64,000 bases of DNA from a virus. The DNA is taken from IMG/VR virus record IMGVR_UViG_3300029237_000366, one strand, 5' to 3'. Shown here in pieces: positions 33,031-62,883 of the stretch. A program made the position numbers and the translations under genes. A model generated the notes under the pieces. The model did no database searches, was not told the DNA's origin, and saw only the letters and a list, made by a program, of their open reading frames with translations. Position 1 is the stretch's first letter. Each line of letters starts with the position of its first letter.

Positions 33031-34323
33031 TTATCCGAAGCTGACTTCGCTTTTATCGGTTCGGATAGAAATAAACACCGGGAACTGAAGACTCTCAGCA
33101 CCGGTGTTTTTATCACTGGATATTTCCTTGTACTTTACTTCGCAGAGCAAACCCGGCAGGCCATCTTTTCCTTGCCAGAATGTTGCTCGCTGCTCGTCGG
33201 TGAACCCGGAGCCGACCTTGACTTCATTCCCCTTATAGTCGAGTACAAGCGCACCTAAAGTCCCTGCCAATCTTCCGCTGCCTTCTTCGCAGCGGAGGAT
33301 ACGCAAGTCCATCGTGTAAAAGCGTTTGACCTTCAGGATTCCATTGTGTCGTCTGCACTGGTAGGGAACATTGAGGTTTACCATCAGCCCCTCTTTATCC
33401 TCACGAACCATCTGCTCCAGCAGTTCACTGATTTTGTTCTGGTCTTTTCCATGATACAGAACCGGCAGAATACTGACCCGGCCATCCTGCGGAATGAAGC
33501 GGTGAAGTTGGTCTAAGAAAGCACGGCGGTAGCCGTAACTGCCGTCGCTCTGCCCACGGTGGAACTCTTCAACCGTCAGAACATCAAAAATCGTGTAGCA
33601 AATCACCGTTTTATCACCATCGTCTGAGTTGATAATACCGGTGGCTTTGCGGAATGCCTCATTGTCTGAGAGGCTGCCCTTCTCACGAAGCGTCAGCTCA
33701 CCATCGAATACATAGCTATCCTCTTCATCAAAACAGAGAGCATCCAGAATATGGTCAAGTCCTTCATAGGGAACTCCGCTTCTTGCGTACAGTCTGCCTT
33801 TGTAATAGGTCGCCCGGACACCGTTCAGCTTTTGTGTTAGCCAGAACTCCGTGCCCTCCTTCAAAGGATACTTATCAATGGGGTACGCCTGCTGAACTTC
33901 CCATTCTGGAATCAGATTGGGGATAACCTTGTTCACGGTCTTTGCCGTGACGCCCAGCCTGAGTGTCTTGGAAAGAAGCTTGATATAAACATCAGCTTCA
34001 TCCGGCGGGCTGCTCTGAACGAATGCACAAACCTGATACACCGTACCGGCGTCCAATGCTTTTCTTTTAGACAACAGTTCGCAGACAGAAAAGATGTCTG
34101 TCATTGTCAGTGTGATGGCTGAGTCATACCGGGTAGGAGAGCGAAGCGTTTGCTCCGAAATCTTATAGGTGAGCATCGGGTTGAGCGCGTAATATAAAAA
34201 ATTACGGAAGTTCGCATCGTCTTGGAACTCCCGTAATAGCTGGGTCTTTCTTATTGAGCCGACCGCTTCCTGCAAACGGCGTAATTTTACGATAGAATCT
34301 GACAGCGGCGTTGCAGTAATCAA
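33031..34323 (-). CDS. ATP-dependent polynucleotide ligase-family protein (DNA-ligase-like, with Asn in motif I)
   Basis: Motifs KLNGVR (I, N instead of D), FDGELTL (III), EGLMVNL (IV) and ILKVKR (V), then an OB domain (GSGFTDEQR). Confidence 0.6.
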   Translation of the reverse strand: MITATPLSDSIVKLRRLQEAVGSIRKTQLLREFQDDANFRNFLYYALNPMLTYKISEQTLRSPTRYDSAITLTMTDIFSVCELLSKRKALDAGTVYQVCAFVQSSPPDEADVYIKLLSKTLRLGVTAKTVNKVIPNLIPEWEVQQAYPIDKYPLKEGTEFWLTQKLNGVRATYYKGRLYARSGVPYEGLDHILDALCFDEEDSYVFDGELTLREKGSLSDNEAFRKATGIINSDDGDKTVICYTIFDVLTVEEFHRGQSDGSYGYRRAFLDQLHRFIPQDGRVSILPVLYHGKDQNKISELLEQMVREDKEGLMVNLNVPYQCRRHNGILKVKRFYTMDLRILRCEEGSGRLAGTLGALVLDYKGNEVKVGSGFTDEQRATFWQGKDGLPGLLCEVKYKEISSDKNTGAESLQFPVFISIRTDKSEVSFG

Positions 34324-35525
34324 TCTTCATCACCCGCCTTGAAATTATAAATGGGCTTGATAATGGCATCGATGGTTACAGCTGGCTCGATATTACCGAC
34401 AATATCATCCATACCCTTATAGGCCATTGGGCATTCATCCAGCGTGCTGCGCCCAACGGAGGTCGTGTAGATACCCGCCATCTGCTTTTTGAATTCGGAT
34501 ACAGTGAAAGCTTCTTTTGCGGCGCTGCGGCTCATCAGCCGACCGGCACCATGAGGGGCGGAAAAGTTCCAATCCGGATTGCCCTTGCCGGTGCAAAGCA
34601 GGCTGCCGTCACGCATATTGATGGGAATCAACAGACGCTCACCGGCCTGTGCAGACACAGAACCCTTACGCAAAATCATGTTCTCCACATCAATATAGTT
34701 GTGAATCGTTGTAAACTGTTCAGTCACATGGAATCCCATCCCTTTGACAATGGTATCCATCATCGCCTGCCGGTTCAGCTCGGCAAAATGCTGTGCAATT
34801 TTCATGTCATGAAGATACTGCTCAAAGAGCTCGCCCTCCACATAAGCAAGCGGTTTGGGAACGGAGGAATGCTTTGACTTCATGGACTTCAACACTGCTT
34901 GAATCTCTTTCTGGCGGCCATCCGCTTTCAGCTGTTCAATAGCCGCCTCAACCTCTTCATGGCTATAAGAGGTCAGTGCCTTGAAAGCAGCCTCCTGATA
35001 GAAGTTGGCGATTTCTAAACCCAGATGACGGCTGCCGGAGTGGACAACGATATAGATATTCCCATCATCGTCCTTGTTCGCCTCAATAAAATGATTGCCG
35101 CCACCCAATGTACCGATACTGTGATAGGCACGGTCAGTGTTGACCTTTTTTGCGCAGCACAACTGCGACAAATCGATTTCTTTTGCGTAACGATGCGGTG
35201 CGGAACGGATTGCAAAGCCAGACGGAATGCCCTCACGGATAACCTTGTCCAACTTCTGCGGTTCGATATTGGTCTCTTTCAGGCGGATGGTTTCCATACC
35301 GCATCCAATATCAACGCCAACAAGGTTGGGGCAAATCTTATCCTTGATAGTCATGGTGGTTCCGATGGTGCAGCCAGCACCGGCATGAATATCCGGCATC
35401 ATACGAACCTTGCTTCCCTCGACATAGGGTTGGTTCAAGAGATTGATGACCTGAGAAATGGATTCGCTATCGACCACATCGGTAAATACTTTTGCCGAAG
35501 CGTATTTCCCCTGAAGCTCAAGCAT
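34320..35525 (-). CDS. rtcB: RtcB RNA-splicing ligase (3'-phosphate/5'-OH ligase)
   Basis: MPDIHAGAGCTIG, GGGNHFIE, VVHSGSRHLG and APHGAGR signatures. Confidence 0.9.
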   Translation of the reverse strand: MLELQGKYASAKVFTDVVDSESISQVINLLNQPYVEGSKVRMMPDIHAGAGCTIGTTMTIKDKICPNLVGVDIGCGMETIRLKETNIEPQKLDKVIREGIPSGFAIRSAPHRYAKEIDLSQLCCAKKVNTDRAYHSIGTLGGGNHFIEANKDDDGNIYIVVHSGSRHLGLEIANFYQEAAFKALTSYSHEEVEAAIEQLKADGRQKEIQAVLKSMKSKHSSVPKPLAYVEGELFEQYLHDMKIAQHFAELNRQAMMDTIVKGMGFHVTEQFTTIHNYIDVENMILRKGSVSAQAGERLLIPINMRDGSLLCTGKGNPDWNFSAPHGAGRLMSRSAAKEAFTVSEFKKQMAGIYTTSVGRSTLDECPMAYKGMDDIVGNIEPAVTIDAIIKPIYNFKAGDED

Positions 35526-35571
35526 TTTATCGCCCTCCTTTGGCTTGGTATATAGTCCTGTTATAGCACAG

Positions 35572-35597
35572 GTAAAAGGGGCTTGTGCCCCTTTATC
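35572..35597 (-). terminator. Rho-independent terminator-like hairpin
   Basis: The AAAGGGGC-TTGT-GCCCCTTT hairpin is followed by a T-run on the minus strand. Confidence 0.4.
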
Positions 35598-35739
35598 TGT
35601 ACCCGACCGCTTTCCGCAGGGGAGCGCGTTTGTACTGTGGCGCGACCCTGTGCATCAAGTGACATTTTTAACGAGAGATTTTGGCTGTATTAAAATGATT
35701 ATCCGCTGGATAATCTTTTTAATACTGGCTAAATCCGAA

Positions 35740-35860
35740 GTTAAAAATGAAGAACGCAAAGTGTTTCTTCTGCTTTGAGCGAGAAGATACCGCACGGAGA
35801 AGGGGGTATGTATGTGCGGAAAATCTACAAAGCGGTCATATCAAAAGCGAAAGATTTTTT
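35740..35860. ncRNA. Divergent copy (R5) of the structured noncoding element family
   Basis: TCTTCT-GCTTTGAGCG-AGAAGA hairpin with the same architecture as the other cores, a CCGCAC...GTGCGG hairpin, and the AAATCTACAAAGCGGT block shared with R4; lies in a 350-nt ORF-poor gap. Confidence 0.35.
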
Positions 35861-35875
35861 CGCTTAAGAACAAAG

Positions 35876-36415
35876 TTAGTGAAGAATCATCGGTCGATTG
35901 GTGTTAATGAGTTGATTCAATGCCTCGTCTTCTCTTGCTCGTTCAGCGGCTTCCTCTCGGCGGATATCCAGAAGAACAACGCCGCAGAACCCCATCAGCT
36001 CACCGATGGAAAAATCCTCTTCCTCCACAGGAGGCTCATCCGGCTCGGAATCTTCTTCATTAAACATGGTGTCGGTATCGAAATCGTCCTCGTCATCAGG
36101 CTCATCTTCCCAAACACCGTTGTTGTCGCCCCACTCCAGGACATCCTCCTTATAACTGTCAAAGTCATTTTCGTCCATACCGTCATAGTCGAAGCTGCCG
36201 TTCATACGGTAGTAACCATATCCGGTTGGGATTTCGGAAAGCGAGTCTCGAATGTCTCTCCATGAGTAATTGGTGTCGCGGATATCTTCCTCGACATACT
36301 CGTCAAGCTGGTCAGAGTCGATAATGTCTTCGCAGATATTGCAGCCCTCGTCGGAGCAGAAATCAAGCAACTCCCACCATTCGGTTACATCGTTAAGGAA
36401 ATCATTTCTTGTCAT
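35876..36415 (-). CDS. Highly acidic protein (candidate DNA mimic or anti-restriction protein)
   Basis: 179 aa with long D/E runs (EDEPDDEDDFDTD, EEDSEPDEPPVEEED). Confidence 0.4.
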   Translation of the reverse strand: MTRNDFLNDVTEWWELLDFCSDEGCNICEDIIDSDQLDEYVEEDIRDTNYSWRDIRDSLSEIPTGYGYYRMNGSFDYDGMDENDFDSYKEDVLEWGDNNGVWEDEPDDEDDFDTDTMFNEEDSEPDEPPVEEEDFSIGELMGFCGVVLLDIRREEAAERAREDEALNQLINTNRPMILH

Positions 36416-36903
36416 ACTGCATCCTCTCTTTCTACCATTTCGGTATCAATCAATGTTAATTTGGATAGCGCCTTTTCTGTCAAAAACGCATACTGCAATC
36501 CAAGATTAGTGCTGGTGAGGTCGTGCTTCATTATTGACATGACCTCTGCTATGGACATACTTGCCCGTCTAAATTTAGAGAACTTACTTTTGAGGTTTGC
36601 TCCGCCGCCAGCCATATTACCAATAACCAAATCATACTCAGTGGAAGTATAGCCCAGCCGAGATGCTACAGCAAACCGCAGCCATGCTTCGGAGTAGCCC
36701 GCAAACTCTAACACCGATAGACCGCCCAAATCCTTTACGGTATATGTCTGGATGAAACCTGCGGTTGAGTGCTTGATTGCCATCGGTAATGCGTCAAAAT
36801 AGTTTGGGGTAAGATAAAAGCCGCACCCGAAATCGCGGTACGGCTTGCAAAAAGATAAGGACGGTACAGTAAATGAAACTGGCGTGCCATGATACAGATA
36901 CAT
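36412..36903 (-). CDS. DUF3990-family protein (predicted ADP-ribosyltransferase fold)
   Basis: MYLYHGTPVSF...DFGCGFYLT matches the DUF3990 N-terminal signature. The track ORF was shortened to the internal Met so that it does not overlap tRNA-Thr. Confidence 0.5.
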   Translation of the reverse strand: MYLYHGTPVSFTVPSLSFCKPYRDFGCGFYLTPNYFDALPMAIKHSTAGFIQTYTVKDLGGLSVLEFAGYSEAWLRFAVASRLGYTSTEYDLVIGNMAGGGANLKSKFSKFRRASMSIAEVMSIMKHDLTSTNLGLQYAFLTEKALSKLTLIDTEMVEREDAV

Positions 36904-36926
36904 TACCAACCCTCCCATATGTTTTG

Positions 36927-37002
36927 TGGAGCTGGTGACAGGGCTCGAACCCGCGACCCTCGGAGTACAAAACCGATGCTCTACCAACTGAGCTACACCA
37001 GC
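36927..37002 (-). tRNA. tRNA-Thr(TGT)
   Basis: 76-nt cloverleaf: GCTGGTG acceptor, AGCTCAGTTGGTAGAGC D-arm, anticodon loop TTTGTAC, GGGTTCGAGCCC T-arm, CCA encoded. Confidence 0.85.
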
Positions 37003-37005
37003 AAA

Positions 37006-37081
37006 TGGAGCTGGAACTCGGAATCGAACCGAGAACCTACGCTGTACGAGAGCGTTGCTCTACCAGTTGAGCTATTCCAGC
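37006..37081 (-). tRNA. tRNA-Thr(CGT)
   Basis: 76 nt: GCTGGAA acceptor, anticodon loop CTCGTAC, T-arm TCGGTTCGATTCCGA, CCA encoded. Confidence 0.85.
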
Positions 37082-37270
37082 ATTGGTCGGCTTCCCGCTT
37101 AGATTGTCACACGCTCATGTGCGGCTGGCGCCCCGCAAGCATACCAACCGGCCACTCTTGGGCTAAATCACAAGGGAGACGCATCTCCTCGCGCAGTTTT
37201 CAGCGGGCATTGTTATTCTCTGTGAGGTAAGCCGATAATCTCTCACATCATCTGGGCGCTACCCAGCCTC

Positions 37271-37348
37271 TGGCACGGACGGTTGGGAATCGAACCCACC
37301 ACAAGCGATTTTGGAGACCGCCTCGCCAGCCTTGGAACATTCGCCCGT
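37271..37348 (-). tRNA. tRNA-Trp(CCA)-like; non-canonical D-arm and an extra nucleotide near the T-stem; possibly a pseudogene
   Basis: Acceptor ACGGGCG/CGTCCGT pairs at 7/7 and the anticodon arm GCGGT-CTCCAAA-ATCGC is good, with discriminator G and CCA. The D-stem barely pairs and the T-arm region is one nucleotide too long. Confidence 0.45.
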
Positions 37349-37530
37349 ATAAGTGGCAGACTATTGCGAACTTGCGGTCTGCCAGCGCGACTCTTTGGTA
37401 ACGCAGGTCTGTATCTGCGTTGCAGATTCCGTCTCTACAGGCTCTGCACAGCCCAGCCACTTTCTATGTGTCGGCACACCGGCATAATTCTGGAGAAACA
37501 TTAGTCCTTTCCACGGCAATGCCATGCCGA

Positions 37531-37588
37531 TGGCGCAGATGGCGGGGATTTGCACCCCGCATGACCTTACAGCGCATCGGTCTCCGCC
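37531..37588 (-). other. tRNA-like fragment (T-arm plus acceptor-like helix, no D-arm or anticodon arm)
   Basis: GCGGGG-TGCAAAT-CCCCGC T-arm-like hairpin, and GGCGGAG...CTGCGCC ends that pair at 6/7, in only 58 nt. The region 37350-37620 has no credible ORF. Confidence 0.25.
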
Positions 37589-37626
37589 ATTTGAGAGGTC
37601 GGCATCCTGTCTGTAATTTGTAGCGT

Positions 37627-38328
37627 CTACCTATTCCGCCACATCTGCATATCTGAAATCGGAATTACCCGATTGTACAGGGCGACAAACTGGTCGTTGA
37701 GCTGTTTGTCCACATGGTAGTGACCGAAGTACCACCGCTTAAAATGAAGGTCTTGACGAATGCGTTCCAAAAAACTGACCATCGGGTCGTTTTCATACCA
37801 ACTTGCCAGCATTGTCTGGATGCTGCGGGGAGCGCAGTGCGTTACAACATAATCAACTGTCCAGTTGTTCTGCTCCAGAGCACAAACTGCACGCTCCATC
37901 TCCTCGTTTGACGGCATCTCCTGCTGCCACCATGAAATATGCTCCGTGCGATACGCCTTGTCCACTGAGCGAGCACCGCCCATACAGAAGATTTTTCTAC
38001 CGTCAATGGTAAGAACCTGACCTCTGTCCAAATGATAAATGTCCGGTGCAATTTGCCTGACTTTACCGCCGAACCTATCCTCTAACGGGAACTGGTATAG
38101 CATATCAAAGTTTTCGTGGTTTCCGTCAATCCAGAGAGTGGTGAAATTTTTGGCTGTGAGCCAGTCTTGCCACCACATCTCCCTGCGTGAGCCATCCCAG
38201 CATAATCCAAAGTCGCCACATATTATCAAGTAATCATCTTTTGTCAGATTTTTCTGCTGCGGGAATTTTGTTGTGTTAAGTTTTTCAATATCGATATTGG
38301 CGTGAGTATCACCTGTTACATATATCAT
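37627..38328 (-). CDS. Calcineurin-like metallophosphoesterase
   Basis: GDTHAN, GDFG, GNHE and GHYH motifs. Confidence 0.7.
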   Translation of the reverse strand: MIYVTGDTHANIDIEKLNTTKFPQQKNLTKDDYLIICGDFGLCWDGSRREMWWQDWLTAKNFTTLWIDGNHENFDMLYQFPLEDRFGGKVRQIAPDIYHLDRGQVLTIDGRKIFCMGGARSVDKAYRTEHISWWQQEMPSNEEMERAVCALEQNNWTVDYVVTHCAPRSIQTMLASWYENDPMVSFLERIRQDLHFKRWYFGHYHVDKQLNDQFVALYNRVIPISDMQMWRNR

Positions 38329-38384
38329 GGAATCCGATTCCTTTCTTCATTTGCAATCTACACGGAGCGTGTACCTGGAGACCG

Positions 38385-38680
38385 GTACCGGATGACGGCC
38401 CGGCTACTTGAGTTGGTGATTTCAAGGGAATTTGTTGGTATGGGGAAGCGCTTGTGGCTCAGTGGTTTATCGACCTTGCTATATCTCGTGCTCCTGCTGC
38501 TCGGCTTCTATCGGGGTGTATCACTTCGGCGATGAGTCCTGAGCCTTCGTTCCGCCTTCGTGGCGGGCGGCCTTTGTTTTCCCAACAAATTGTTACTTTG
38601 GCCTTTGGCGCAAAGCACATTCCTTTCGGGATGTTATTCATTGCAAATGATTTTGGTGTTCCTGTAATCTACATAGGATA
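38385..38680. ncRNA. Structured noncoding repeat element, copy R1
   Basis: Core hairpin CTTTG-GCCTTTGGCG-CAAAG at 38586-38605, second hairpin ACATTCC-TTTC-GGGATGT, flanking conserved blocks (GTGTTTTCC..CCAACAA.TTGTTAC; TTATTCATTGCA..AAATG), and an upstream GC hairpin CCGCC-TTCGT-GGCGG. Confidence 0.45.
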
Positions 38681-38689
38681 AGCGTGCCG

Positions 38690-38950
38690 GATGCGAGGCG
38701 CCTGGAGCGCATTGCAGGTGCGGTTAGTTCCTATTTTAATTCTCTACTGGTGTGGAACCCATTGTGCCGCAATGACCGCTGACTCTATTTTTCATGCCTG
38801 ATGACGAGCCCGACTGGGTCGCAGCCGCGTCGGCAGCCGGTCTTCAGGAAGAGGCGAGGGTGTTCCTTCCCAACAAGTTGTTACTTATGCCTTTGGCGAT
38901 AAGCATTGCTTTCGCAATTATCCATTACAGGAAATGGCGGTTTAACCTCA
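38690..38950. ncRNA. Structured noncoding repeat element, copy R2
   Basis: Core hairpin CTTAT-GCCTTTGGCG-ATAAG at 38874-38893 (compensatory relative to R1), second hairpin ATTGC-TTTC-GCAAT, a terminal GGCGG...CCGCC hairpin; homologous upstream arm. Confidence 0.45.
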
Positions 38951-38964
38951 ATCCGCCAAAGAGA

Positions 38965-40122
38965 TTATCTTAAATCGTCTTTGATAAGCCGCAGGACATC
39001 TGTCTCCATTTTTTCGTTGGTGTGCTTCACGATGGCATCGATAGTCTCCGGCTCTACCATACGATAGTAGCTATGTAAGCCCTGCATGGTTTGAACATCT
39101 TCTCTCGGCCACGAGACGCCCTTGCGTTTATCGGTAATGTAGTTGTAAAGCATGGACTGGAACTGGCGCTTCTTCTTATGGCCGACAGTAATTTCATTGT
39201 CCTTGTTGAGCATGACACCAAGATTCCAGTTACGACCTGCGGAAGAGCCGTATCTCGTTTTGCTTTCGTTGATGGTGAACGGTGCTCCAAATTCATGCAG
39301 CGTATCCACCACGAGTTTTTCTACACGATGCACATCGAAATCAACCTTAGACGAAATGATGAAGTCATCGGCATATCTGGTGTAAATGAACCGCTGCTTG
39401 TCAAAATCACGGAATGCATTGGCAAGCTTATAGTCAACAGGAATCATCATTACATTGGTAATCAGCGGGGAAAGCGGAGTTCCCTGCGGCAGACCTCCAT
39501 TGAGAAAAGCCAAATCCAAGGCCTTCCGCAACTCTGCCTCGCCGTTGGGAAACTTTACGATTTCGCTGAATGGGAACACCATAGAAAACATTTTGATAAC
39601 ATAATCCAGTGTAGTGCTACCAAAGAAATCGTGCAAATCCAGCTTGCCGAACCACTTGCTGTTGTTTTTCTGATGACGCTTGACCGCATCAACCGTACAT
39701 CTGTTTTTTACATAGGCGAATGCAGAAGTGTGATACAACGCATGGAAATCTTCCTCAAAAATAGTCTTGAGATTCCGCAATGCGTTCATCAGCTCCGGTT
39801 TAGGGGCATCAATACGACGCAAACCACCAGACTTTTTGGGGATGTGGAATGTTTCATACAAAGTACTGCGTTCTTGTGCGCGAAGCGCCTCCGTTTGCTC
39901 ATTAAAGCGCACCAGTTTGCGGATAAGAGCATCCGTATCAATGCGGCTTGTAAAATGCTCACTTACCGTTTCATATGCATAGGTTCGTGTGTTGGAAACA
40001 TTTGTGTTTAATATGGTTTGTGCTTGGAAGTTTTGAAAGAGGAACTCCTCCAGTGTCATTTGGTGATAAATCGGGGATTGCATGACCGTGATATATACCA
40101 TAGTTCTATGCCTCCTTTTCAT
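38965..40122 (-). CDS. Reverse transcriptase (retron/group-II-intron-like, free-standing, no endonuclease domain)
   Basis: RT motifs IPKKSGGLRRI (1), AFAYVKNRCTVDA (2), LDLHDFFGS (3), GLPQGTPLSPL (4, QG type), YTRYADDFIISS (5, YADD), and a thumb-like C-terminus (ITVGHKKKRQFQSMLY; GLHSYYRMV). Confidence 0.8.
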   Translation of the reverse strand: MKRRHRTMVYITVMQSPIYHQMTLEEFLFQNFQAQTILNTNVSNTRTYAYETVSEHFTSRIDTDALIRKLVRFNEQTEALRAQERSTLYETFHIPKKSGGLRRIDAPKPELMNALRNLKTIFEEDFHALYHTSAFAYVKNRCTVDAVKRHQKNNSKWFGKLDLHDFFGSTTLDYVIKMFSMVFPFSEIVKFPNGEAELRKALDLAFLNGGLPQGTPLSPLITNVMMIPVDYKLANAFRDFDKQRFIYTRYADDFIISSKVDFDVHRVEKLVVDTLHEFGAPFTINESKTRYGSSAGRNWNLGVMLNKDNEITVGHKKKRQFQSMLYNYITDKRKGVSWPREDVQTMQGLHSYYRMVEPETIDAIVKHTNEKMETDVLRLIKDDLR

Positions 40123-40199
40123 AGTCGTAACTGTAACCTACATAAGGTAATGCCGCGTTTGAATCAAAAGAAGGTACCTGCAGCGAGCTTTGGTGAGCT

Positions 40200-40480
40200 G
40201 CGTTGGTGGGTATTCTTTTGATAAAAGTGGTGAGTACTTGTCGAGATTGGGTTGATTTCGTGATGGTTTTCACTTGACAGTCTCGGTTTGTTGTGTTATT
40301 CCTTCTACCGGTTCCCTGGCGGATGTCTATCGGCTTCGAGTCTCCTGAGGAGTCTCCAGTCGTCGCTCTGGGCAGGCGGTGTTTTCCACCCCGACAATTT
40401 GTTACTTCAGCCTTTGGCGTGAAGCCCCCGAAAAGGGTAATTCGTTACAGTTAAATGGCGCATTTTAAGGCTGCGCCACA
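40200..40480. ncRNA. Structured noncoding repeat element, copy R3
   Basis: Core hairpin CTTCA-GCCTTTGGCG-TGAAG at 40405-40424 (a third compensatory variant), second hairpin CCC-GAAAA-GGG, a terminal GGCGC...GCGCC hairpin; the upstream arm is homologous to R1. Confidence 0.45.
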
Positions 40481-41274
40481 CCTAATAGCTCGAACAGTTC
40501 TGCATCTGTGCAGGTTTCGTTTTTCAATGCGTATGGTTTGATGTGGGCTACGCCGTTTTCATCAACCTCTACCACTGTTTCCGGTTTCAACCGGCACAAC
40601 GGCCTAAGCCCCGCACAGTCACGGGGATATTTCCTCTCACAATACCCAGACCTACTAAGAGTCAAAGCATAGCCTCTGAATTCATCCTGCTTGCCTGCCA
40701 ACCAGAAGTTCATGTAAGACTCCCAACTGAAATTACCAAACCGGCCTTTTTTATCAGCACAGTCTTCTGTTGCTTTGGGACGAATACCTTTCTTGGAAAA
40801 CAGCTTCAGCTTCAACTGGTCATCAAAGATATCGGTGATAGTAGGAAGTCGAATGAGGGAACTGAGCGTCTCACCGTCAACAACATACTGCTGCATCTGC
40901 AAGCTATCGAGTTCATAATCTTCAAAGAAGTATAGAAACCCATAATGGTTGCGATAGCTTTGTGCTCGGTTGCTGAAAACATTATTCGGAGGGGCATCTG
41001 CTTCATGAGTTTTGCGAAACCAATCGTCTCTGTCGCTGTTTAGGTATGTATGAATATTGGACAGACGATAGTCGGGATTGCCAAGATTGCGCCTGCCGTC
41101 TCCAGTTCTTTCCGGTGCATCAAAGCAAAGATAATCCACGGCACACTCGGTGATAAAATCGCAGTTTGGACTACCTTTCAGCCAAACAACGGGGTGCGGT
41201 TCATCATTGTTGACTCCGTAAGAACCAATGATGACCTGTGTGCCGACCTTAAGGCGTTCGACGGTAGTATCCAT
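40465..41274 (-). CDS. Hypothetical protein, DUF1566/Lcl-C-terminal-like; paralog of the 45474-46148 gene
   Basis: RLPTITD..., ...SRSGYCERK...CAGLRPLCRL C-terminal pattern. Confidence 0.35.
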   Translation of the reverse strand: MDTTVERLKVGTQVIIGSYGVNNDEPHPVVWLKGSPNCDFITECAVDYLCFDAPERTGDGRRNLGNPDYRLSNIHTYLNSDRDDWFRKTHEADAPPNNVFSNRAQSYRNHYGFLYFFEDYELDSLQMQQYVVDGETLSSLIRLPTITDIFDDQLKLKLFSKKGIRPKATEDCADKKGRFGNFSWESYMNFWLAGKQDEFRGYALTLSRSGYCERKYPRDCAGLRPLCRLKPETVVEVDENGVAHIKPYALKNETCTDAELFELLGVAQP

Positions 41275-41308: not shown

Positions 41309-41986
41309 TTAAAAAGCGTCCAACATAAAGTTGAACGCATCCAAGATAATCAGTTTTTTCAGTCCCTTGCCACGAATGAAGTTGACAAAGTTGGCGACGC
41401 CGAGTGCGCAGATAGCCCTGACGGTTGGCGCAACGCCCAGTGTAACACCGCAAGCGGAGACAGGTGTTTCCTCAGACGCCTCTTCATGACTGAAGTTCAT
41501 GGAGTTCAGCAAGTCTTTCTTCATCTTGTAGTCAGACCAGTCGGCAGCATAATGCTGTGCAGATTCCAATAGAGTGCGGAAGTCCAGCATTGCTTTGACA
41601 TAGGGATTGTCGAAGTGCTTTTCAACAATCTGGCGACGAAGTTCGATATTGTCTACGCAAAGGAAGACATACCCGGAAAGCTGCTGCCCACTCCACCCCT
41701 TGCCATAAAGCTTGAGGTCGTCCTTAATTTCGGGATTGATTTCAAACAGGATATCTGCCAGAGCCTCCACTTTGGGGCGGCCAATATCCTGCTGGCGGAA
41801 AATCTGGTTTGCCAGATTATGCGGATTCACAACATCCATATCCCACAGAGCGAGATTGGTGATGCCAAGACGGACGAGGTTCTCTGCCAGCGTTGCACCA
41901 ACAGAACCACATCCAACAATGTTAATGCGAGCCTCAACCTTTTCAGGCTGGAAATACTCGTAGCTTTTGGACAAATCCATTGCCAT
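41309..41986 (-). CDS. E1-like adenylyltransferase (ThiF/MoeB/HesA family)
   Basis: The Rossmann nucleotide-binding loop IVGCGSVGATLAENLVRLGITNLALWDMDVVNPHNLANQ is typical of the E1/ThiF family. Confidence 0.75.
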   Translation of the reverse strand: MAMDLSKSYEYFQPEKVEARINIVGCGSVGATLAENLVRLGITNLALWDMDVVNPHNLANQIFRQQDIGRPKVEALADILFEINPEIKDDLKLYGKGWSGQQLSGYVFLCVDNIELRRQIVEKHFDNPYVKAMLDFRTLLESAQHYAADWSDYKMKKDLLNSMNFSHEEASEETPVSACGVTLGVAPTVRAICALGVANFVNFIRGKGLKKLIILDAFNFMLDAF

Positions 41987-41988
41987 TG

Positions 41989-42957
41989 TTACTCACCTCC
42001 AAGATACTGGTCGCTGTAGCCGCCATAGGGATATACGGAACCATCATCGTCTTCATCCCACATGGACTGCTGACAGCTATTCTTCCCCTGCCAACCTGCA
42101 CCGATTCTTGTGCGCGGCTTCTCGGCCTTTTCGGATTTTTGCTCTGATTTCTTATCAGACTTCTTGCCGTCTTTGTCATCCTTCTCATCTTTTTTGCTGC
42201 CCGGAAGAGGATTATAAGGGGCTCCGGAATAAGGTGGACGATTGCCGCTATATCCGCTATATCCACCATAGTTTCCGTAGGTATAGCTTTTCTGCTTTAC
42301 CATATCCTTGGCGGTCTTGAGGAACTCAGCCAGCCCCTCATGTTCACCCTCAAGTTTGACGGTGATGTCCTTATCTTCAAACAGGACATTCTTCTTGAGG
42401 TCATAGATTTTATTTGTACTGACAAATGACTTGTTCCAAATCATGAAGATGTAGAAGTCGTCGTCCCCCAGCATATTGAGGATTTCCTCCTGATGATTGA
42501 GGTCTACGGAAGATGGGCTGGTCGCCATATTGACATGGGAATGTCCCTGCATATGAATGTTGTTGAAACGCTCATCGTCTGCATTCTGCATCAACCACTC
42601 AGCGTACTTCTCAGTATCCATCTCAACCGTGGTTCCGGAGACCTCCTGCGGATAAACCACGATGTCTTCGATGATGTACTCATCTACGGCTTCGTCAGCT
42701 GCACGATGTGCAACGCCATGCCAAGCGACCTCCTTATCAAACTCTTTGACGAGGAGTGCCATCTTCGCCCATGCTCCGGCAGTAAAGACGACAGTTGCTT
42801 TTCTGTCGCCACAGGTGAACACCTTTGTGAAAGACAGTTTCCCATCTGCAAGCTTTGTAAGCTGCAAAGCCTTTTCAAAATCTGCACGGCACTCAGCCAT
42901 GTACTGTTCGGTCATCTTAATGGGTTTACTCATTTTGCGCCTCCTCCGCTTACTCAT
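41989..42957 (-). CDS. JAB/MPN (JAMM) metalloprotease-domain protein with a disordered Lys/Tyr-rich C-terminal tail
   Basis: HSHVNMATSPSSVD fits the JAMM motif HxHx7Sx2D. The C-terminus is low-complexity (YSGYSGNRPPYSG...KKDEKDDKDGKKSDKK); 4-bp overlap with the E1-like gene. Confidence 0.7.
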   Translation of the reverse strand: MSKRRRRKMSKPIKMTEQYMAECRADFEKALQLTKLADGKLSFTKVFTCGDRKATVVFTAGAWAKMALLVKEFDKEVAWHGVAHRAADEAVDEYIIEDIVVYPQEVSGTTVEMDTEKYAEWLMQNADDERFNNIHMQGHSHVNMATSPSSVDLNHQEEILNMLGDDDFYIFMIWNKSFVSTNKIYDLKKNVLFEDKDITVKLEGEHEGLAEFLKTAKDMVKQKSYTYGNYGGYSGYSGNRPPYSGAPYNPLPGSKKDEKDDKDGKKSDKKSEQKSEKAEKPRTRIGAGWQGKNSCQQSMWDEDDDGSVYPYGGYSDQYLGGE

Positions 42958-44413
42958 TTGCCTGCGTTTCCTGCTGCTCCAACCAGCTGATGGCTTCGTT
43001 GGGTTTTACGATACGGCCATCGGGCAGTTCAATGCAGCGATTGTTGCTACCGTTGCCCCACATAGACCGCATAAACGAAGTCATGACAGCAGAGTCTCCC
43101 CAGTTAAGGCTCTTGCAGGAAGCAACGCACTGCTCCAAAGCGCCAATATAGTCGTGGTTCCTAAGCAGCCGATTGATAGTGGTGGTATAATTACCCATGC
43201 AGTTGTAATCATTGATATGGGGATTGGGGAGGTAGTCACCATACTCCGCGCCAAAATCCCGATGCCCATTGGGAGCAACGCTACCATTAAGGTCAAAACG
43301 GTAGGAAGCACAGACACGAATTCTCAGGCGCGGCTCTTCACTGACAAAGATTTCAGTCATCAGCTTCTTCATTTTCTCAGCAGCTGCGCCTGTATGACCG
43401 GAGCCTCCGTCGGGGCGGTACACGAAACTCGTAGCGTGGTTAATGATTTGTTCTGCCATATCCCGGTCAAAATATTCCAGACAATCCTTGACCGTGAAGT
43501 ACATATCGGTATTGGTCACACGCTCCAGAACCAGCTTGGTATTACACAGGAAGTACTCCATGATTTCAGAGTCCTCACCGCCATCGGCAACTTTCTGCTC
43601 AAGTCCCAGCAAGCGAATACACTGTTCATTACGCTTTGTGAACTGCTCACCGATATTGTCATTTAGACGGGTGATTTCTCTATCGATATTTTGAATTACC
43701 TGCCTGACACGGTCACACTCAACTTGCTCATAGCGAGTTTCAAAACCCTTCAGCAGCTGACGGATTCTTGCTGTGCGGAAATCGTACCGTTCTGCAAGCT
43801 TGGCAAGACAGCGTTCATAGTCTTCTGAGCTCTTTTCGCGGAGGGATTTGACCAATGCAAGCTCATCTTCGGTGATACCCTCCTGCTGATTCAGATACCA
43901 CGGCAGGAATGCGAGGATAGATACCTGCAAGTAGTGCATTTTGCGAATGTCAAGATTGTCCGCAAAGATGATAACACTCTTAAGCTCAGGATTGATGTAG
44001 CAATCCACGGCAAAGGATTTGCGGTAAAACTCGGCGAACTTTTCAAGCCGGTGATACCCTGCAAACACGGAAACGAACTTGTCAACAATAATTTTCATGT
44101 TGGCAAGATTGCTATCCGAGTCTGCCCGCAAACTATGAATAATAACCTGACCGGTTGCGCTCATATCATAGTTGTTGCAGATAGCCGAAACGGCTCTGTC
44201 CGCCGGAACACTACGAATCGTGTCTGCCGTATAATCGGAAGAACCGAACACCAAATTGACGGACTCTCCCTCTTTGATTCGAGGTGCAACTAAGGCACGA
44301 AGCGTCGCAAGGAAAGAGCAGTCGTTTCCGAAAGCACCGCCGGTGATATTGGTGAAGTAGCTATTGGCAGCTTCCGTAGTAAACGGCGTTGACGAAATGC
44401 TTGTTTTGAACAT
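42950..44413 (-). CDS. Hypothetical large protein (about 488 aa) upstream of the JAB gene
   Basis: Start moved to the internal Met (MFKTSISS, AGAGGTG RBS) to avoid overlapping tRNA-Leu; no recognisable domain. Confidence 0.4.
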   Translation of the reverse strand: MFKTSISSTPFTTEAANSYFTNITGGAFGNDCSFLATLRALVAPRIKEGESVNLVFGSSDYTADTIRSVPADRAVSAICNNYDMSATGQVIIHSLRADSDSNLANMKIIVDKFVSVFAGYHRLEKFAEFYRKSFAVDCYINPELKSVIIFADNLDIRKMHYLQVSILAFLPWYLNQQEGITEDELALVKSLREKSSEDYERCLAKLAERYDFRTARIRQLLKGFETRYEQVECDRVRQVIQNIDREITRLNDNIGEQFTKRNEQCIRLLGLEQKVADGGEDSEIMEYFLCNTKLVLERVTNTDMYFTVKDCLEYFDRDMAEQIINHATSFVYRPDGGSGHTGAAAEKMKKLMTEIFVSEEPRLRIRVCASYRFDLNGSVAPNGHRDFGAEYGDYLPNPHINDYNCMGNYTTTINRLLRNHDYIGALEQCVASCKSLNWGDSAVMTSFMRSMWGNGSNNRCIELPDGRIVKPNEAISWLEQQETQANE

Positions 44414-44440
44414 AGGAACACCTCTATTCATTTTGTTATA

Positions 44441-44525
44441 TGGTGGGGAATATCGGAGTCGAACCGATATGGTATGCACCAGCGGATTTTAAGTCCGCAG
44501 CGTCTGCCTGTTCCGCCAATTCCCC
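44441..44525 (-). tRNA. tRNA-Leu(TAA)
   Basis: 85 nt: GGGGAAT acceptor, anticodon loop CTTAAAA, long variable arm, ATCGG-TTCGACT-CCGAT T-arm, CCA encoded. Confidence 0.85.
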
Positions 44526-44575
44526 ATAGAAAGAGCCGCCCGAATGGGCGGCTCAATTGGTCTATTGCTTGTGAA

Positions 44576-44803
44576 TCAGGCGTTATCGGCCTTGACCACA
44601 TTCAGCAGGAAGCACTTCTCGGTGATACCGAACTGAGCGAAGGTCTTGTCGAGGTCGCCGGGGTTCAGGGAAGACCCGTCGAGGTGCATGACGCCACGGG
44701 TATAGTCAACACCGTTCGCCTCCAGACAGGCACGCAGGGTGGTGGACTCGTCGATGATAACGGACTCGCGCTTGACATTGTTGCCAACAGTAACCTTAAT
44801 CAT
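44576..44803 (-). CDS. Small hypothetical protein with beta-grasp-like alternation of strands
   Basis: 75 aa (MIKVTVGNNVKRESVIID...GITEKCFLLNV); no C-terminal GG. Confidence 0.3.
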   Translation of the reverse strand: MIKVTVGNNVKRESVIIDESTTLRACLEANGVDYTRGVMHLDGSSLNPGDLDKTFAQFGITEKCFLLNVVKADNA

Positions 44804-44882
44804 AATGTTTCTCCTTTAATTCAAAATTTGTTTTGTTGTGAACGGAAGGGGGCGGCATAAGCCGCCCCTTTGCGACCAGTGA

Positions 44883-45281
44883 TTACTGAGCGACCGTGAT
44901 GTTGCTCAGCACATTTGCCTTCTCAGCCGCAATCTCATCGAGAACGGCAGGCAGCTTCTCCTCAAGCTTGTTGAGGCTGATGATGGCGGCGCCCAGACGG
45001 TCAGCGACCCAGTCCTTAACATCGCCGGTCACACCGTCGAGGAACAGGGTGATGCACGCCAGCTTCTCATCGTCGCGGGTCTCAGCGCCGAAAGAAGCGC
45101 CGAAAGCGTTGATGTTACCGGCACCATTGGTGGTACCCACAGCGAAGATAGGCTCCTTGCCGTCCTCGCCACCCTTGAGAACCAGCTCCTTGGGACGATA
45201 CTTCTCAATGGTCTTGATGTCCTCCAGCTTTATTGCGGAAGTTACGACAGCTGCGTCGCCTGCGATAGTGATTTTTGCCAT
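44883..45281 (-). CDS. Hypothetical protein
   Basis: 132-aa ORF with a clean context. Confidence 0.4.
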   Translation of the reverse strand: MAKITIAGDAAVVTSAIKLEDIKTIEKYRPKELVLKGGEDGKEPIFAVGTTNGAGNINAFGASFGAETRDDEKLACITLFLDGVTGDVKDWVADRLGAAIISLNKLEEKLPAVLDEIAAEKANVLSNITVAQ

Positions 45282-45473
45282 GATGTATGTACTCCTTCAA
45301 TACTGATGTACTCCTATTTGTTCACCTTTCGGTTATCCGCCCACACCACGAGGAGGTTGGAGCCGTTGTGGGTATGAAACGCGCCCGGTCTCCTTCGCGG
45401 AGCGCCGGGCGCTTGTAAAAAGCTATTTGATTTTACTGGTTCGGGCAAAAGCTGATGGCTACGCCATGCAGCT

Positions 45474-46148
45474 TTAAGTGCAGAAGCCGAAAGCGACGCC
45501 ATGACTGCTGTCGGCGTAGTAATTGTTGGCGGTGCCGGTGCTGTAGACATCACAGAAACGATCGCTGTTGCCAGAACGAGGAGAACGCAACATGGTGTAA
45601 TCAGGATTACCGTTGCGGAGCTTAAACCATGCGACATCTTCCTGACGATACCACTCGTACCAATGCCCCTCACCGGGAGCGGAGTAAATATTGCGTCCAT
45701 ACAATTCCTTCTCAGACTTTATCCAGAAAGAGTCCAGCGTCTCGATAATACGATTCTCGCCAGTGTACACATCAGCTGTCTGCTTAATGACTGGTGTGAC
45801 AACATCCAAAATCTCGTCGGGAATCAGACGATGAATGTCGCCGTCCGCATCGTTGAGCCGATGGCGAATCTGCGTTGCTTCCCACGACCCTTCATTGGTG
45901 TCGCGCCTGTTCCAGGGGTAAGTGTTAGGCAGACAATCCACCATCTCCCAAGAGATAGGAGCCAAAGAACCGTCGCTCGTCTTGTCGTGATTGAAGCCGA
46001 TGATGCGAAACTGAACCTGCGCACCGTTCTTCAGCACAACATTGCGGTAATCTCCGAGCTGCAAGAAATCAGCCGCATATTTTCCAAGCCCCTTTAAGGA
46101 ACGCCATGGCATATTATCCAAACAGTTTGGCATTTCACAGACCTCCAA
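45474..46148 (-). CDS. Hypothetical protein, DUF1566/Lcl-C-terminal-like
   Basis: C-terminal MLRSPRSGNSDRFCDVYS...GVAFGFCT pattern; paralogous to 40465-41274 and to the fragment at 62614-62832. Confidence 0.4.
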   Translation of the reverse strand: MEVCEMPNCLDNMPWRSLKGLGKYAADFLQLGDYRNVVLKNGAQVQFRIIGFNHDKTSDGSLAPISWEMVDCLPNTYPWNRRDTNEGSWEATQIRHRLNDADGDIHRLIPDEILDVVTPVIKQTADVYTGENRIIETLDSFWIKSEKELYGRNIYSAPGEGHWYEWYRQEDVAWFKLRNGNPDYTMLRSPRSGNSDRFCDVYSTGTANNYYADSSHGVAFGFCT

Positions 46149-46158
46149 TCAAAAAATG

Positions 46159-46249
46159 TGGCGGGGAGTGTAGGATTTGAACCCACGGACGGCTCATCAC
46201 CGTCAACGGTTTTCAAGACCGCCGCCATAAGCCACTCGGCCAACTCCCC
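46159..46249 (-). tRNA. tRNA-Ser(TGA)
   Basis: 91 nt: GGGGAGT acceptor, anticodon loop CTTGAAA, long variable arm, GTGGG-TTCAAAT-CCTAC T-arm, discriminator G, CCA. Confidence 0.85.
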
Positions 46250-46265
46250 ATAAAAGAAGGGCGGG

Positions 46266-46949
46266 TCATCTCAGACCGCCGCCCTTAATATCATCCCAAA
46301 AGCCTCCACTAAACTCTTCATCATCCACTGGATAACCAGCATCATCCTCATACGGAAACTCCGTATAGACCTCGCAGCCAGTTTCTTCATCCGTGATAAT
46401 CATGGGGCGGTAAATTGGCAGGCACTGCTCCTGAGCGAGGTACTCCAAGAAGTGGTCTAAGACCTCGTTTACAAACATTTCTCCGTATGTATCCATGATT
46501 TCAGGGCTGTTGTCTATCGACTCCTGCAAGACAACGGACAGGAAATCACACAGAGCGAGAGAAAGCTCGTCCTCGCGCTCATACTGAGCATCCTCCATAT
46601 CCTGCCGAGTCAAATCTTCTGGCTCTTCCTCCGGCAATTCCGGCGGGCATTTCTTCCCATCAACAATCATGACAGGGAAAAGATATTGTGCATACAGGCG
46701 TTTCGCCGCTTCATTACAACCTGTCTCGGTCAGAACACACTCCTCATACTCCGGTTTTGCATCGCCCTTACACACGGAAAACAAAGGAAGTGCATTATCC
46801 TCGGTAAGATATACCGCATACTCTGTGTCCTTGTTCTCTGCGATGACGACCATTTCCTTTGACAGGCGGTCTTTATGACTTTGGAAAAAAGCCCACACTG
46901 TATTTGCGGCTACATAAATATGAACCCCCATGATAGATGACCTCCTCAC
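46266..46949 (-). CDS. Acidic hypothetical protein
   Basis: 227-aa ORF rich in D/E. Confidence 0.35.
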   Translation of the reverse strand: MRRSSIMGVHIYVAANTVWAFFQSHKDRLSKEMVVIAENKDTEYAVYLTEDNALPLFSVCKGDAKPEYEECVLTETGCNEAAKRLYAQYLFPVMIVDGKKCPPELPEEEPEDLTRQDMEDAQYEREDELSLALCDFLSVVLQESIDNSPEIMDTYGEMFVNEVLDHFLEYLAQEQCLPIYRPMIITDEETGCEVYTEFPYEDDAGYPVDDEEFSGGFWDDIKGGGLR

Positions 46950-46959
46950 GAAATAGAAT

Positions 46960-47035
46960 TGGTGCCCCCGATGGGGCTTGAACCCATGACACCCGCCTTA
47001 AAAGGGCGGTGCTCTACCGACTGAGCTACGGAAGC
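46960..47035 (-). tRNA. tRNA-Lys(TTT)
   Basis: 76 nt: GCTTCCG acceptor, anticodon loop CTTTTAA, ATGGG-TTCAAGC-CCCAT T-arm, CCA. Confidence 0.85.
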
Positions 47036-47175
47036 ATAAACCGGCTGTTACGGAGCGCCCTAAATGGTGGACACGCTTGGATTCCACAGCAGCTTTGCCG
47101 TTTGAAAGGAAAACGATGAACGACGGACGAAAAGGAGGGAGCTACTGAAAGGACACAACACCGTGGCAAAGCTAA

Positions 47176-47259
47176 TGGTGCAGGATAAGAGACTTGAACT
47201 CTTACGCCAAAGGCAACGGGACTTGAATCCGCCGTGTCTGCCAATTCCACCAATCCTGC
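47176..47259 (-). tRNA. tRNA-Leu(CAA)-like (type II; the anticodon stem has one mismatch)
   Basis: 84 nt: GCAGGAT acceptor, AATTGGCAGA D-loop, loop TTCAAGT read as anticodon CAA, variable-arm hairpin GCC-TTT-GGC, AAGAG-TTCAAGT-CTCTT T-arm, CCA. With the alternative loop register the anticodon would be UCA. Confidence 0.6.
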
Positions 47260-47387
47260 GTATGAAAGTGGCCTTTAGGTCGGCCAACCACCATCTGACT
47301 AACTATTTTGTCATTACAAGCGTACTCTCTATTGGAAAGCCGTTAGCTTGTAATCTTGCCCCAGTCATGTTTGTTAGAAGGGCTCCG

Positions 47388-47474
47388 TGGTGCGGGTAGT
47401 GAGATTTGAACTCACACGCCCTAATGGGCACAAGCACCTCAAGCTTGCCTGTCTGCCGATTCCAGCATACCCGC
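47388..47474 (-). tRNA. tRNA-Leu(GAG)
   Basis: 87 nt: GCGGGTA acceptor, anticodon arm CAAGC-TTGAGGT-GCTTG, long variable arm, GTGAG-TTCAAAT-CTCAC T-arm, CCA. Confidence 0.8.
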
Positions 47475-47700
47475 ATAAAACCCAGAACCTTTTACTCGAC
47501 AATGAGGATAATGGAGCTTCCACGCCGTGGAAGGCACCACTTTCTGATTGTGGCACACTTCACTTCGGACTTCATGTAACGCTCGTCATCGATAGCTCCG
47601 TTGTACAGCGTCTCGCAGAAACCGTCTGTGTTGCGCCGAACCAGCAGGTTATCGACCTGAGAATCCAGCGAAAAGTGCGCTCTTATAAAATCCAAAACCG

Positions 47701-48129
47701 TCATGAGATGGCCTCCCTTGAGAAAGATTCAAAGAGCTTGTCAAACTCTGTTGTGTCAGCATCAAACTCGTCATCGTCATCAATGCGCTTAATATCACTT
47801 GGCGTAACAAACCATCCGTATCCATGAGAGCACGCCCCGTGACAGTCATGACCTCCATCGACTTTTTCGTTCCATCTGACTCCGATGTGCGGGGAGGACT
47901 CAACGATAACACAGATAACTCCCTGCATTCCAATAGCGATGCTATCATTATTGTCCGGCGAGTCCCGAACGCATTCGACCTTATCGCCGACATTGAGGGT
48001 ATCAGCAATCTTATCTTCGTCCATCTTCTTCCTCCTCAAAATGCTTGATGATTTCGGCAATGGAGTAATCATCCCACCATCCACCAGAATACTGGACGGC
48101 AGAACCGAAGAAACCCCGTTTAACGACAA
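47701..48129 (-). CDS. Hypothetical protein (GGHDCHGACSHGYGW motif)
   Basis: 142-aa ORF; conserved-looking CHGAC..GYGW block. Confidence 0.35.
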   Translation of the reverse strand: MSLNGVSSVLPSSILVDGGMITPLPKSSSILRRKKMDEDKIADTLNVGDKVECVRDSPDNNDSIAIGMQGVICVIVESSPHIGVRWNEKVDGGHDCHGACSHGYGWFVTPSDIKRIDDDDEFDADTTEFDKLFESFSREAIS

Positions 48130-48185
48130 CTGTCTTGTTGGGAATGTCGATATGTACTCTTATCCGACGCATTTTAACCCTCCAT

Positions 48186-48998: not shown

Positions 48999-49252
48999 CG
49001 GCGTCCCTCCTCATGAATTGTTCTTAGCCTCTACCCACCAAGAGAAAGGCTATAAATGCGACAAGAACCGTTATTACGACGCTGTCATAAGCTACTCGAA
49101 CATAGTTGTCGGTTCTCATTCGCTCCATCTTTGTACGGAGGCGCTGGATTTCTTCGTTCTTGCTTTCACGCTCAAATTTGTATCGGTAGTACGCATCACC
49201 AGATATAAAATCATTACGCTCCACGCTTTTGCCTCCTTACCAAAGTCATGTT

Positions 49253-49579: not shown

Positions 49580-49602
49580 TGGTCGCTCCTCCTTTTATGA
49601 GG

Positions 49603-49678
49603 TGGTGGAGATAGCCGGACTCGAACCGGCGACCCTCTGCGTGCAAAGCAGATGCTCTCCCAACTGAGCTATATCCCC
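49603..49678 (-). tRNA. tRNA-Ala(TGC)
   Basis: 76 nt: GGGGATA acceptor with the G3-U70 pair, anticodon loop TTTGCAC, GCCGG-TTCGAGT-CCGGC T-arm, CCA. Confidence 0.85.
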
Positions 49679-62832: not shown

Positions 62833-62883
62833 CCTCTCCACCCTGCCGCATTTGCTTTGACGCAGAATATAAGTTTTTACATG

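Follow-up and report, generated by a model that had tools for sequence, protein, structure and literature searches.

A reverse transcriptase gene flanked by three noncoding units

The 64,000-nt stretch of viral DNA analysed here (IMG/VR record IMGVR_UViG_3300029237_000366; the window) carries on its minus strand a gene for a reverse transcriptase (RT) flanked by three noncoding units, U upstream of the gene and D1 and D2 downstream of it (Table 1). The RT open reading frame (ORF) had been described in an earlier first-pass annotation made from the letters alone, and it was present as claimed, with a Pfam RVT_1 match of 3.9e-19, the motifs LPQGTPLSP and YADD, and a retron-like thumb. Pfam and PDB sequence matching found no extra or effector domain fused to the RT. 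Copies of the protein in the databases are all 378 aa long and begin at the second ATG (40101) and not at the first (40122), so the true start is probably M8; an AAGGAGG ribosome-binding site lies 9 nt upstream of the second ATG.

Read on the strand of the RT gene, each unit begins with the 5' strand of a closing stem and an adjoining invariant G, continues through two hairpins (H1 and H2), a short motif and a variable interior, and ends with a TATGTAG or CGTGTAG box and the 3' strand of the closing stem. We redrew the unit boundaries from these closing stems. On the upstream side, U stops 27 nt short of the RT start, and D1 begins 31 nt past the RT stop codon; D2 follows 8 nt after D1 and ends 18 nt ahead of the start of the next gene.

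A motif shared by the units, TTGTTACTTNNGCCTTTGGCG, occurs four times in the window against 0.01 occurrences expected. A hit at 17299 lies within coding sequence and was set aside as chance. The first-pass annotation had counted five copies of the element. Three of these are complete units; the others are a degenerate copy and a hairpin remnant. The degenerate copy is intergenic and full-length and lacks a closing stem (best closing run 5 bp); it probably represents a unit that has decayed and no longer plays a working role. No Rfam family covered the units at gathering score or at E values up to 10.

Table 1. The RT gene, the noncoding units and neighbouring features of the window. Unit names in brackets are those of the first-pass annotation; parts of units are listed from 5' to 3' on the RNA strand.
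Feature	Position	Strand	Remarks
Retron-type reverse transcriptase	38965-40122	-	ORF 385 aa; likely 378 aa from M8
Unit U (R3)	40128-40453	-	326 nt; covariance model 78 bits; 5' strand 40444-40453; candidate priming G 40443; H1 region 40426-40442; H2 40404-40425; AACAAATTG motif 40388-40403; variable interior 40145-40387; TATGTAG 40138-40144; 3' strand 40128-40137
Unit D1 (R2)	38659-38933	-	275 nt; covariance model 90 bits; 5' strand 38924-38933; G 38923; H1 region 38905-38922; H2 38883-38904; AACAACTTG motif 38867-38882; interior 38676-38866; TATGTAG 38669-38675; 3' strand 38659-38668
Unit D2 (R1)	38347-38650	-	304 nt; covariance model 84 bits; 5' strand 38640-38650; G 38639; H1 region 38617-38638; H2 38595-38616; AACAATTTG motif 38579-38594; interior 38365-38578; CGTGTAG 38358-38364; 3' strand 38347-38357
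Degenerate orphan unit core	21239-21319	-	34 bits; H2 intact, A for invariant G
H2-like hairpin remnant, then AACACTTTG	35757-35801	-	23 bits; intergenic
ATP-dependent DNA ligase	33031-34323	-	
RtcB RNA ligase	34320-35525	-	
Two tRNA genes	36930-37081	-	
Metallophosphoesterase	37627-38328	-	
269-aa protein	40465-41274	-	function unassigned
ThiF/E1-like adenylyltransferase	41309-41986	-	Pfam ThiF 1.7e-23; PADLOC Cap2 E1-E2 models 5e-17
322-aa protein	41989-42957	-	complete JAMM motif E76...H139-x-H141-x7-S149-xx-D152; 18 of 19 loci
509-aa protein	42950-44479	-	14 of 19 loci
75-aa protein	44576-44803	-	beta-grasp-like appearance; 7 of 19 loci

The units fold as RNAs closed by private end stems

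The first-pass annotation had read the copies as structured RNAs with compensatory changes in covarying hairpins, and this was borne out on 79 homologous units. Across them, 99% of the H1 and H2 cells pair, compared with 29-48% when the partners are slid, and compensatory double changes were found at 12 of the 13 pairs. Both hairpins follow the invariant G in each unit. In 66 of the 79 units H2 has G-U as its outer pair, and U-G pairs are frequent elsewhere. Because of these G-U and U-G pairs the structure works only on the strand of the RT gene, which argues for RNA and not for DNA. The RNA strand of the window units is the minus strand, and all covariance-model hits with E < 0.2 lay on the RT strand.

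In the units of the window, the 10-11 nt directly 5' of the invariant G have their perfect reverse complement 230-350 nt downstream, the two forming closing stems of TAACTGTAAC with GTTACAGTTA in U, TTCCTGTAAT with ATTACAGGAA in D1 and TCATTTGCAAT with ATTGCAAATGA in D2. Where the first-pass annotation had seen no a1/a2 repeats of the retron kind, a perfect 10-11 bp inverted repeat with an adjoining invariant G thus closes every window unit, and the minimum-free-energy folds of U, D1 and D2 all recover it. At least seven Watson-Crick pairs anchored next to the G were present in 79% of 77 units, compared with 3.7% in shuffles, and 40 of the 77 had at least ten. The inner 6 bp of the stem occur in 15 distinct covarying versions, with double changes at all 12 pairs. 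Pairing held in 88% of closing-stem cells, against 29-38% when the register was slid, the former value being inflated since the 3' partner was chosen by complementarity. Independent support for the stem comes from the shuffle control and from the conserved (T)GTAG before the partner. Of 61 units, 60 have a G directly after the 5' strand. Directly before the 3' strand stands a conserved (U)GUAG; among 62 units, position -2 is A in 53 and position -1 is G in 58. The closing-stem sequence differs between the units of one phage, so that each unit has a private stem, which would keep the units from mispairing in a polycistronic transcript.

Two other readings of unit segments were dropped. A long-range stem between the AACAAYTTGNNGG motif and the interior reached 10 bp in U and D2, but over 70 units it averaged 6.5 against 6.2 in shuffles. 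The TGTAGATTAC box was considered as a promoter, and a consensus scan gave no gene-strand promoter or terminator in the unit-bearing intergenic regions; since the box covaries with the 5' strand, it is a pairing partner of that strand.

The units accompany the RT across phages

A covariance model made from the ~83-nt conserved core was run on 45 sources, namely 44 phage loci and the window, the RTs of the loci being 44-99% identical to that of the window. Unit copies were found in nearly all of them, adjoining the RT and always on its strand. The full unit layout recurs in ~77 units from phage contigs in this range of RT identity. The RT start is preceded by one copy, at a distance of ~280-390 nt, and the RT stop codon is followed by one to three; of 31 representative loci, 14 have one unit upstream and two downstream, and ten have one on each side. 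Contigs of Clostridia metagenome-assembled genomes likewise carry units on the RT strand next to the RT. Changes in the downstream genes do not break the association, which persists on either side of the RT.

Units of the form stem|G...TAG|stem also adjoin RTs of only 37-40% identity. At one such locus (L133, 5810-6490; Rikenellaceae-binned, RT 37% identical), three tandem units of ~215 nt with the layout stem|GAA...TAATAG|stem follow the RT. This array indicates that the design is found well outside the range that the covariance model can detect. In the viral collection, the exact H2 motif was found in 42 stretches, all of them from RT-bearing contigs except one stretch that is truncated where the RT would lie.

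The two hairpins differ in how they vary between genomes. The mean edit distance of the H2 tip was 1.6 within a phage compared with 5.0 between phages; for H1 the distances were 9.5 and 10.1, with no such contrast. The simplest reading of an H2 tip that is nearly uniform within each phage, when H1 is not, is that the genome's own RT recognises the tip.

The RT groups with retron RTs

All 25 PADLOC matches listed for the RT were retron RT models (1.6e-47 to 4.6e-27), with RT_II-A the best at 1.6e-47. The NCBIfam model retron_St85_RT was matched at 177 bits over its full length, which is below its equivalog cut-off of 235 bits, and other NCBIfam models scored lower, group II RT with 80 bits (cut-off 300) and Drt2 with 40 bits. 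The best PDB sequence matches were the RTs of retrons Ec83, Ec78, Ec67 and Kva2, aligned through the thumb, and no Abi or DRT structure was among the 19 PDB matches of the RT. Both hidden Markov model (HMM) and PDB sequence matching place the RT in the retron/retron-like clade. The statement in the first-pass annotation that this is not a recognisable retron was wrong and, by that annotation's own reckoning, the finding becomes a retron variant and not an unknown element. The HMM classification that it had proposed placed the RT best with retrons and cleanly in no single type: the RT scored alike against many of the listed retron-type PADLOC models (93-160 bits) and therefore belongs to none of the described types.

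The catalytic residues and YADD are invariant across ten divergent RT homologues. Aligned to the Ec83 RT, the NAXXH motif reads AVKRH and the VTG motif reads NLG, so that the H and the G alone are retained; neither of them varies among ten divergent family members. These are the most conserved residues of the two motifs (Mestre et al. 2020). Among known phages, the only full-length protein relative lay on a faecal contig without annotation ('Bacteriophage sp.'), with 41% identity.

The unit interiors are variable and A/C-rich

Units are 234-458 nt long (median 301 nt), with interiors of 150-370 nt (median 212). The interiors contain 31% A, 29% C, 22% G and 18% U, so any complementary DNA (cDNA) made from them would be G/T-rich. 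Coding in the interiors, in the manner of DRT2, was considered as well and rejected: indels of 1-2 nt between close relatives indicate that there is no coding constraint.

Variation was examined in seven phages with closely matching RT genes (97.8% identity overall and 94.6% at third codon positions). Identity was 98-99.6% in the unit cores of these phages and only 78% (U), 88% (D1) and 70% (D2) in the interiors. The interiors diverge 2-5 times faster than third codon positions. The changes were not biased towards adenine, and their transition:transversion ratio was close to 1. When the D2 interior of the window was compared with those of loci L001, L004, L005, L007, L008 and L053, the sequences fell into two sharply distinct haplotype groups, with RT genes ~98% identical, which suggests exchange of cassettes over gradual divergence. 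Taken together, the lack of adenine bias, the transition:transversion ratio and the D2 haplotypes suggest that old alleles were exchanged and that RT errors are not the source.

One locus showed the loss of a unit. The sole downstream unit of a near-identical phage, L118 (7138-7480), is a chimera of a D1 5' half and a D2 3' half joined at the shared H2 tip, with mismatched H2 lower stem and closing stem; the RT protein there is identical to database protein P0021. The position of the joint indicates that the unit was lost by homologous deletion.

Comparison with retrons and other RT systems

Retrons, the nearest known family to the phage system, are known as bacterial abortive-infection systems composed of one RT, one noncoding RNA (ncRNA) and a toxin. 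Like the retrons Ec86/Eco1, St85/Sen2, Ec83 and Ec78, the phage system has an RT of the retron clade, an ncRNA directly upstream of it on the same strand, an end stem of the a2/a1 type, and msr-like hairpins followed by a variable, template-like region. It differs in having two to four units per RT, some of them downstream of the RT, and in lying beside RNA-repair genes in a phage genome of ~130 kb and not in a bacterial defence island or a P2/P4-type prophage. It also differs in carrying no known effector, in keeping the NAXXH and VTG motifs only partly, and in its long units without a conserved msd hairpin, the interiors of which are A/C-rich and hypervariable. Among the retron features compared, the RT clade, adjacency and strand, the a1/a2 stem and the conserved G were found; of NAXXH and VTG only the H and the G were present; the msd hairpin and the effector were not found.

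The geometry of the units can be set beside that of a known retron. In retron ncRNAs, as set out by Mestre et al. (2020), inverted repeats a1/a2 join the ends, a branching G ends the 5' repeat, the RT recognises hairpins of the msr, and reading of the msd template starts just upstream of the 3' repeat. The sequence of the Ec86 ncRNA was confirmed by perfect matches (100% identity) to 48 E. coli genomes, where it lies ~80 nt upstream of an RT of the 'retron St85 family'. It reads TGCGCACCCTTA|G...CTGACG|TAAGGGTGCGCA, and the same stem|G ... G|stem geometry is found in the phage units.

The arrangement of several units also resembles the engineered 'multitron' arrays, in which tandem msr-msd units are served by one retron RT (10.1101/2023.07.17.549397). 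Those arrays are man-made, whereas the phage array is natural, conserved across a phage family and provided with a different closing stem in each unit. With diversity-generating retroelements (DGRs) the system shares a phage-borne RT beside a noncoding, template-like region that varies between close relatives. Unlike DGRs, it has no template-repeat/variable-repeat pair and no adenine-specific substitutions, and the RT is not of the DGR type. The first-pass annotation had already rejected a DGR and a group II intron, and both exclusions held: the window contains no second copy of any unit interior resembling a variable repeat, the variation is not adenine-biased, there was no Rfam intron hit at E values up to 10, and the group II RT score fell far below its cut-off.

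The phage and the genes around the RT

The exact RT protein is index-listed in 2402 blocks of a public assembly collection, and contigs of ~130 kb carry the same gene order as the window. No nucleotide match was found among 50,697 phage records. These results indicate that this phage of the human gut is very common and, by the searches of phage records and proteins, has no cultured relative. In species-level genomes, close relatives of the RT were found only on Clostridia-binned contigs (Oscillospiraceae, Roseburia, Lachnospiraceae, Christensenella and Lawsonibacter), and the host is therefore probably a member of the Clostridia, within the Firmicutes.

The RT gene belongs to a run of co-oriented genes on the minus strand, at ~33-45 kb. 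Upstream of it, the ThiF/E1-like gene was present in 19 of the 19 loci compared, divergent ones included, and is a possible accessory gene of the RT module. The family of the 322-aa protein gave a weak match to RPN11, a JAMM protein, in a profile search against PDB sequences; for the 509-aa protein the same kind of search gave no match, and no domain was detected. The block at 41309-44803, here phage-encoded, resembles the Bil or Cap2/Cap3 systems of ubiquitin-like conjugation. The gene downstream of the RT module varies between loci.

The RT module sits inside a region that resembles an RNA-repair/tRNA island. The window has 12 tRNA genes, and the island, with RtcB, ligase and metallophosphoesterase, comprises the regions 33031-38328, 44444-49885 and 62883-63126. 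Phages use RNA-repair and tRNA gene sets of this kind against anticodon nucleases.

A retron-like array is the favoured explanation

The first-pass annotation had offered two guesses, that the RNAs are templates or partners of the RT in the manner of retron ncRNAs, or that they form a cis-regulatory family into which the RT was inserted. The class of the RT, the stem|G geometry and the linkage of units and RT favour the former. We consider it very likely that the units are the cognate ncRNAs of this RT and have a retron architecture. Their reverse transcription from the conserved G into products resembling multicopy single-stranded DNA (msDNA) is probable, and we favour, at a similar level of confidence, the view of the locus as a phage-borne retron array making several msDNA-like single-stranded DNAs (ssDNAs).

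Under this retron-array model, one retron-clade RT would serve three co-transcribed msr-msd-like ncRNAs, U from upstream and D1 and D2 from downstream. Each unit folds independently through its private 10-11 bp end stem, the equivalent of retron a2/a1. The RT would recognise the H2 tip, prime from the 2'-OH of the G and copy the RNA upstream of the 3' strand. The output would be three different G/T-rich, msDNA-like ssDNAs, templated by the A/C-rich, fast-evolving interiors.

Several observations weigh against the model. RNAalifold found neither conserved structure nor a long msd-type hairpin in the interiors, and their folding is weak (mean z-score -1.1). The NAXXH and VTG motifs, as AVKRH and NLG, are only partly retron-like, none of the neighbouring genes matched a retron effector model (the conserved E1-like and JAMM-like genes upstream belong to no known effector kind of retrons), and the closing-stem pairing is subject to the inflation given above. 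A literature search, of incomplete coverage and hence weak as evidence, returned no natural retron RT with downstream units or with several ncRNAs, and no description of this RT family.

The closest published parallel is offered by the UG27 RTs (380-450 aa) of gut phages of Bacteroidota and Bacillota, which are accompanied by variable arrays of basal-stem ncRNA units; these units, of 135-167 nt, template cDNA hairpins of 50-100 nt, and the RT and two accessory proteins are needed (Mestre et al. 2022, PMC9226505; Minerva preprint, 10.64898/2026.09.22.753630). If the window units worked in this way, they would template short, unbranched cDNA from an internal segment, dependent on accessory proteins and without 2'-5' priming from the G. 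The two systems have much in common: both occur in gut phages with an RT of ~380-450 aa, both have basal-stem units that are diverse in sequence, vary in number and are gained and lost between close relatives, and for neither was a sequence target found; upstream of our RT, moreover, lies a conserved gene block with no assigned role. We nevertheless think a UG27-like mechanism quite unlikely. UG27 enzymes are class 2 UG/Abi RTs with YSDD in all five systems tested, whereas the RT described here has an invariant YADD, scores 177 bits with the retron model against 40 bits with Drt2, a class 2 UG RT, and has no Abi or DRT protein among its PDB matches. The UG27 motif AUCN7UANAG was found in 0 of 62 units, and neither the UUYA motif nor the central hairpin template of UG27 is present; the median unit length here is 301 nt, against 135-167 nt for UG27 units. 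The two UG27 accessory proteins (sORF and bORF) have no recognisable domains, in contrast to the conserved E1 and JAMM neighbours here, and no small/large ORF pair consistently followed the RT across the compared loci in a comparison made without UG27 accessory profiles. Membership of UG27 itself was rejected on motif, unit size, YSDD and RT similarity, as judged against the published descriptions of that family.

Another reading is that the RNAs are scaffold, regulator or localisation partners of the RT or of the E1/JAMM module and are not reverse transcribed. In its favour, the interior has no conserved structure or msd-type hairpin, conservation is confined to ~90 nt of 5' core and ~20 nt at the 3' end, and the upstream block is tightly conserved with the RT. 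Such a role is decidedly unlikely in our estimation, as the invariant catalytic residues of the RT family indicate that polymerisation is under selection, stem|G...AG|stem is the exact priming geometry of retrons, and the interior keeps both its length and its A/C-rich composition. The second guess of the first-pass annotation, taken here to include antitermination elements, RNase sites, translation control and DNA repeats, with an RT link that is only positional, was not supported. D2 and U do end 18-27 nt ahead of the next start codon, and H2-like hairpins stand alone in two other intergenic regions (21239-21319 and 35757-35801). Against this, the units keep to both flanks of the RT at 37-99% RT identity while the downstream genes change, the stretches with the exact H2 motif come from RT-bearing contigs with the single exception given above, and the H2 tip co-evolves per genome. 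Moreover, the G-U pairs and strict strandedness oppose a DNA-level element, and promoter- or terminator-like sites were not found on the gene strand of the unit-bearing intergenic regions, making a purely cis-acting role very improbable.

Finally, the array and its hypervariability could stem from retro-transposition or error-prone self-copying, the units being non-autonomous retroelements that the RT copies and re-inserts. Copy number does differ between near-identical phages, and the rapid divergence of the interiors relative to third codon positions would fit as well. Yet U, D1 and D2 are old, position-specific paralogues with stems of their own, copies are not scattered (the window has one decayed extra copy), and the one copy loss examined was a homologous deletion between H2 tips. 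The substitution pattern and the two D2 haplotype groups fit allele exchange over RT errors, and we regard this origin as extremely improbable.

Possible role and significance

As to what the products of a retron-like array would do, a role for the phage in its conflict with host defences is a tentative proposal that we hold to be possible, if doubtful; it is drawn purely from the gene context. A phage-serving role appears likelier than abortive infection because there is no linked toxin-type effector and because the neighbours are RNA-repair genes (RtcB, ligase, tRNAs). The products might then act against host defences or rival phages, for example as decoys. In its fullest form this proposal describes a natural retron array used as a counter-defence or inter-phage weapon, in which hypervariable msDNA-like decoys or sponges would engage host sensors or effectors (for instance by taking the place of the antitoxin msDNA of host retrons, or by titrating immunity that senses ssDNA), template-cassette alleles would be swapped between phages under diversifying selection, and the upstream Ubl-like (ubiquitin-like)/JAMM/E1 module would perhaps be a partner; as a whole this is, on balance, unlikely.

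If the retron-array model is true, phages have co-opted the priming chemistry of retrons for a toxin-independent role, which suggests that phages, besides bacteria, use retron-made DNA. As the UG27 arrays are unrelated, gut phages would then have acquired the combination of an RT with an ncRNA array on at least two occasions. Through the fast-evolving template cassettes the function of phage-made ssDNA would become directly testable, and the array, with different closing stems, a shared hairpin tip and one RT, would offer a natural blueprint for multiplexed retron editing.

Other structured elements in the window

Elsewhere on the minus strand, Rfam matches were obtained for RAGATH-4 at 52704-52838 (112 bits) and RAGATH-16 at 53015-53086 (96 bits). 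Beside these hits lies a perfect 58-nt tandem duplication (53174-53289), a third copy of which, 62% identical, is found at 54488-54545.

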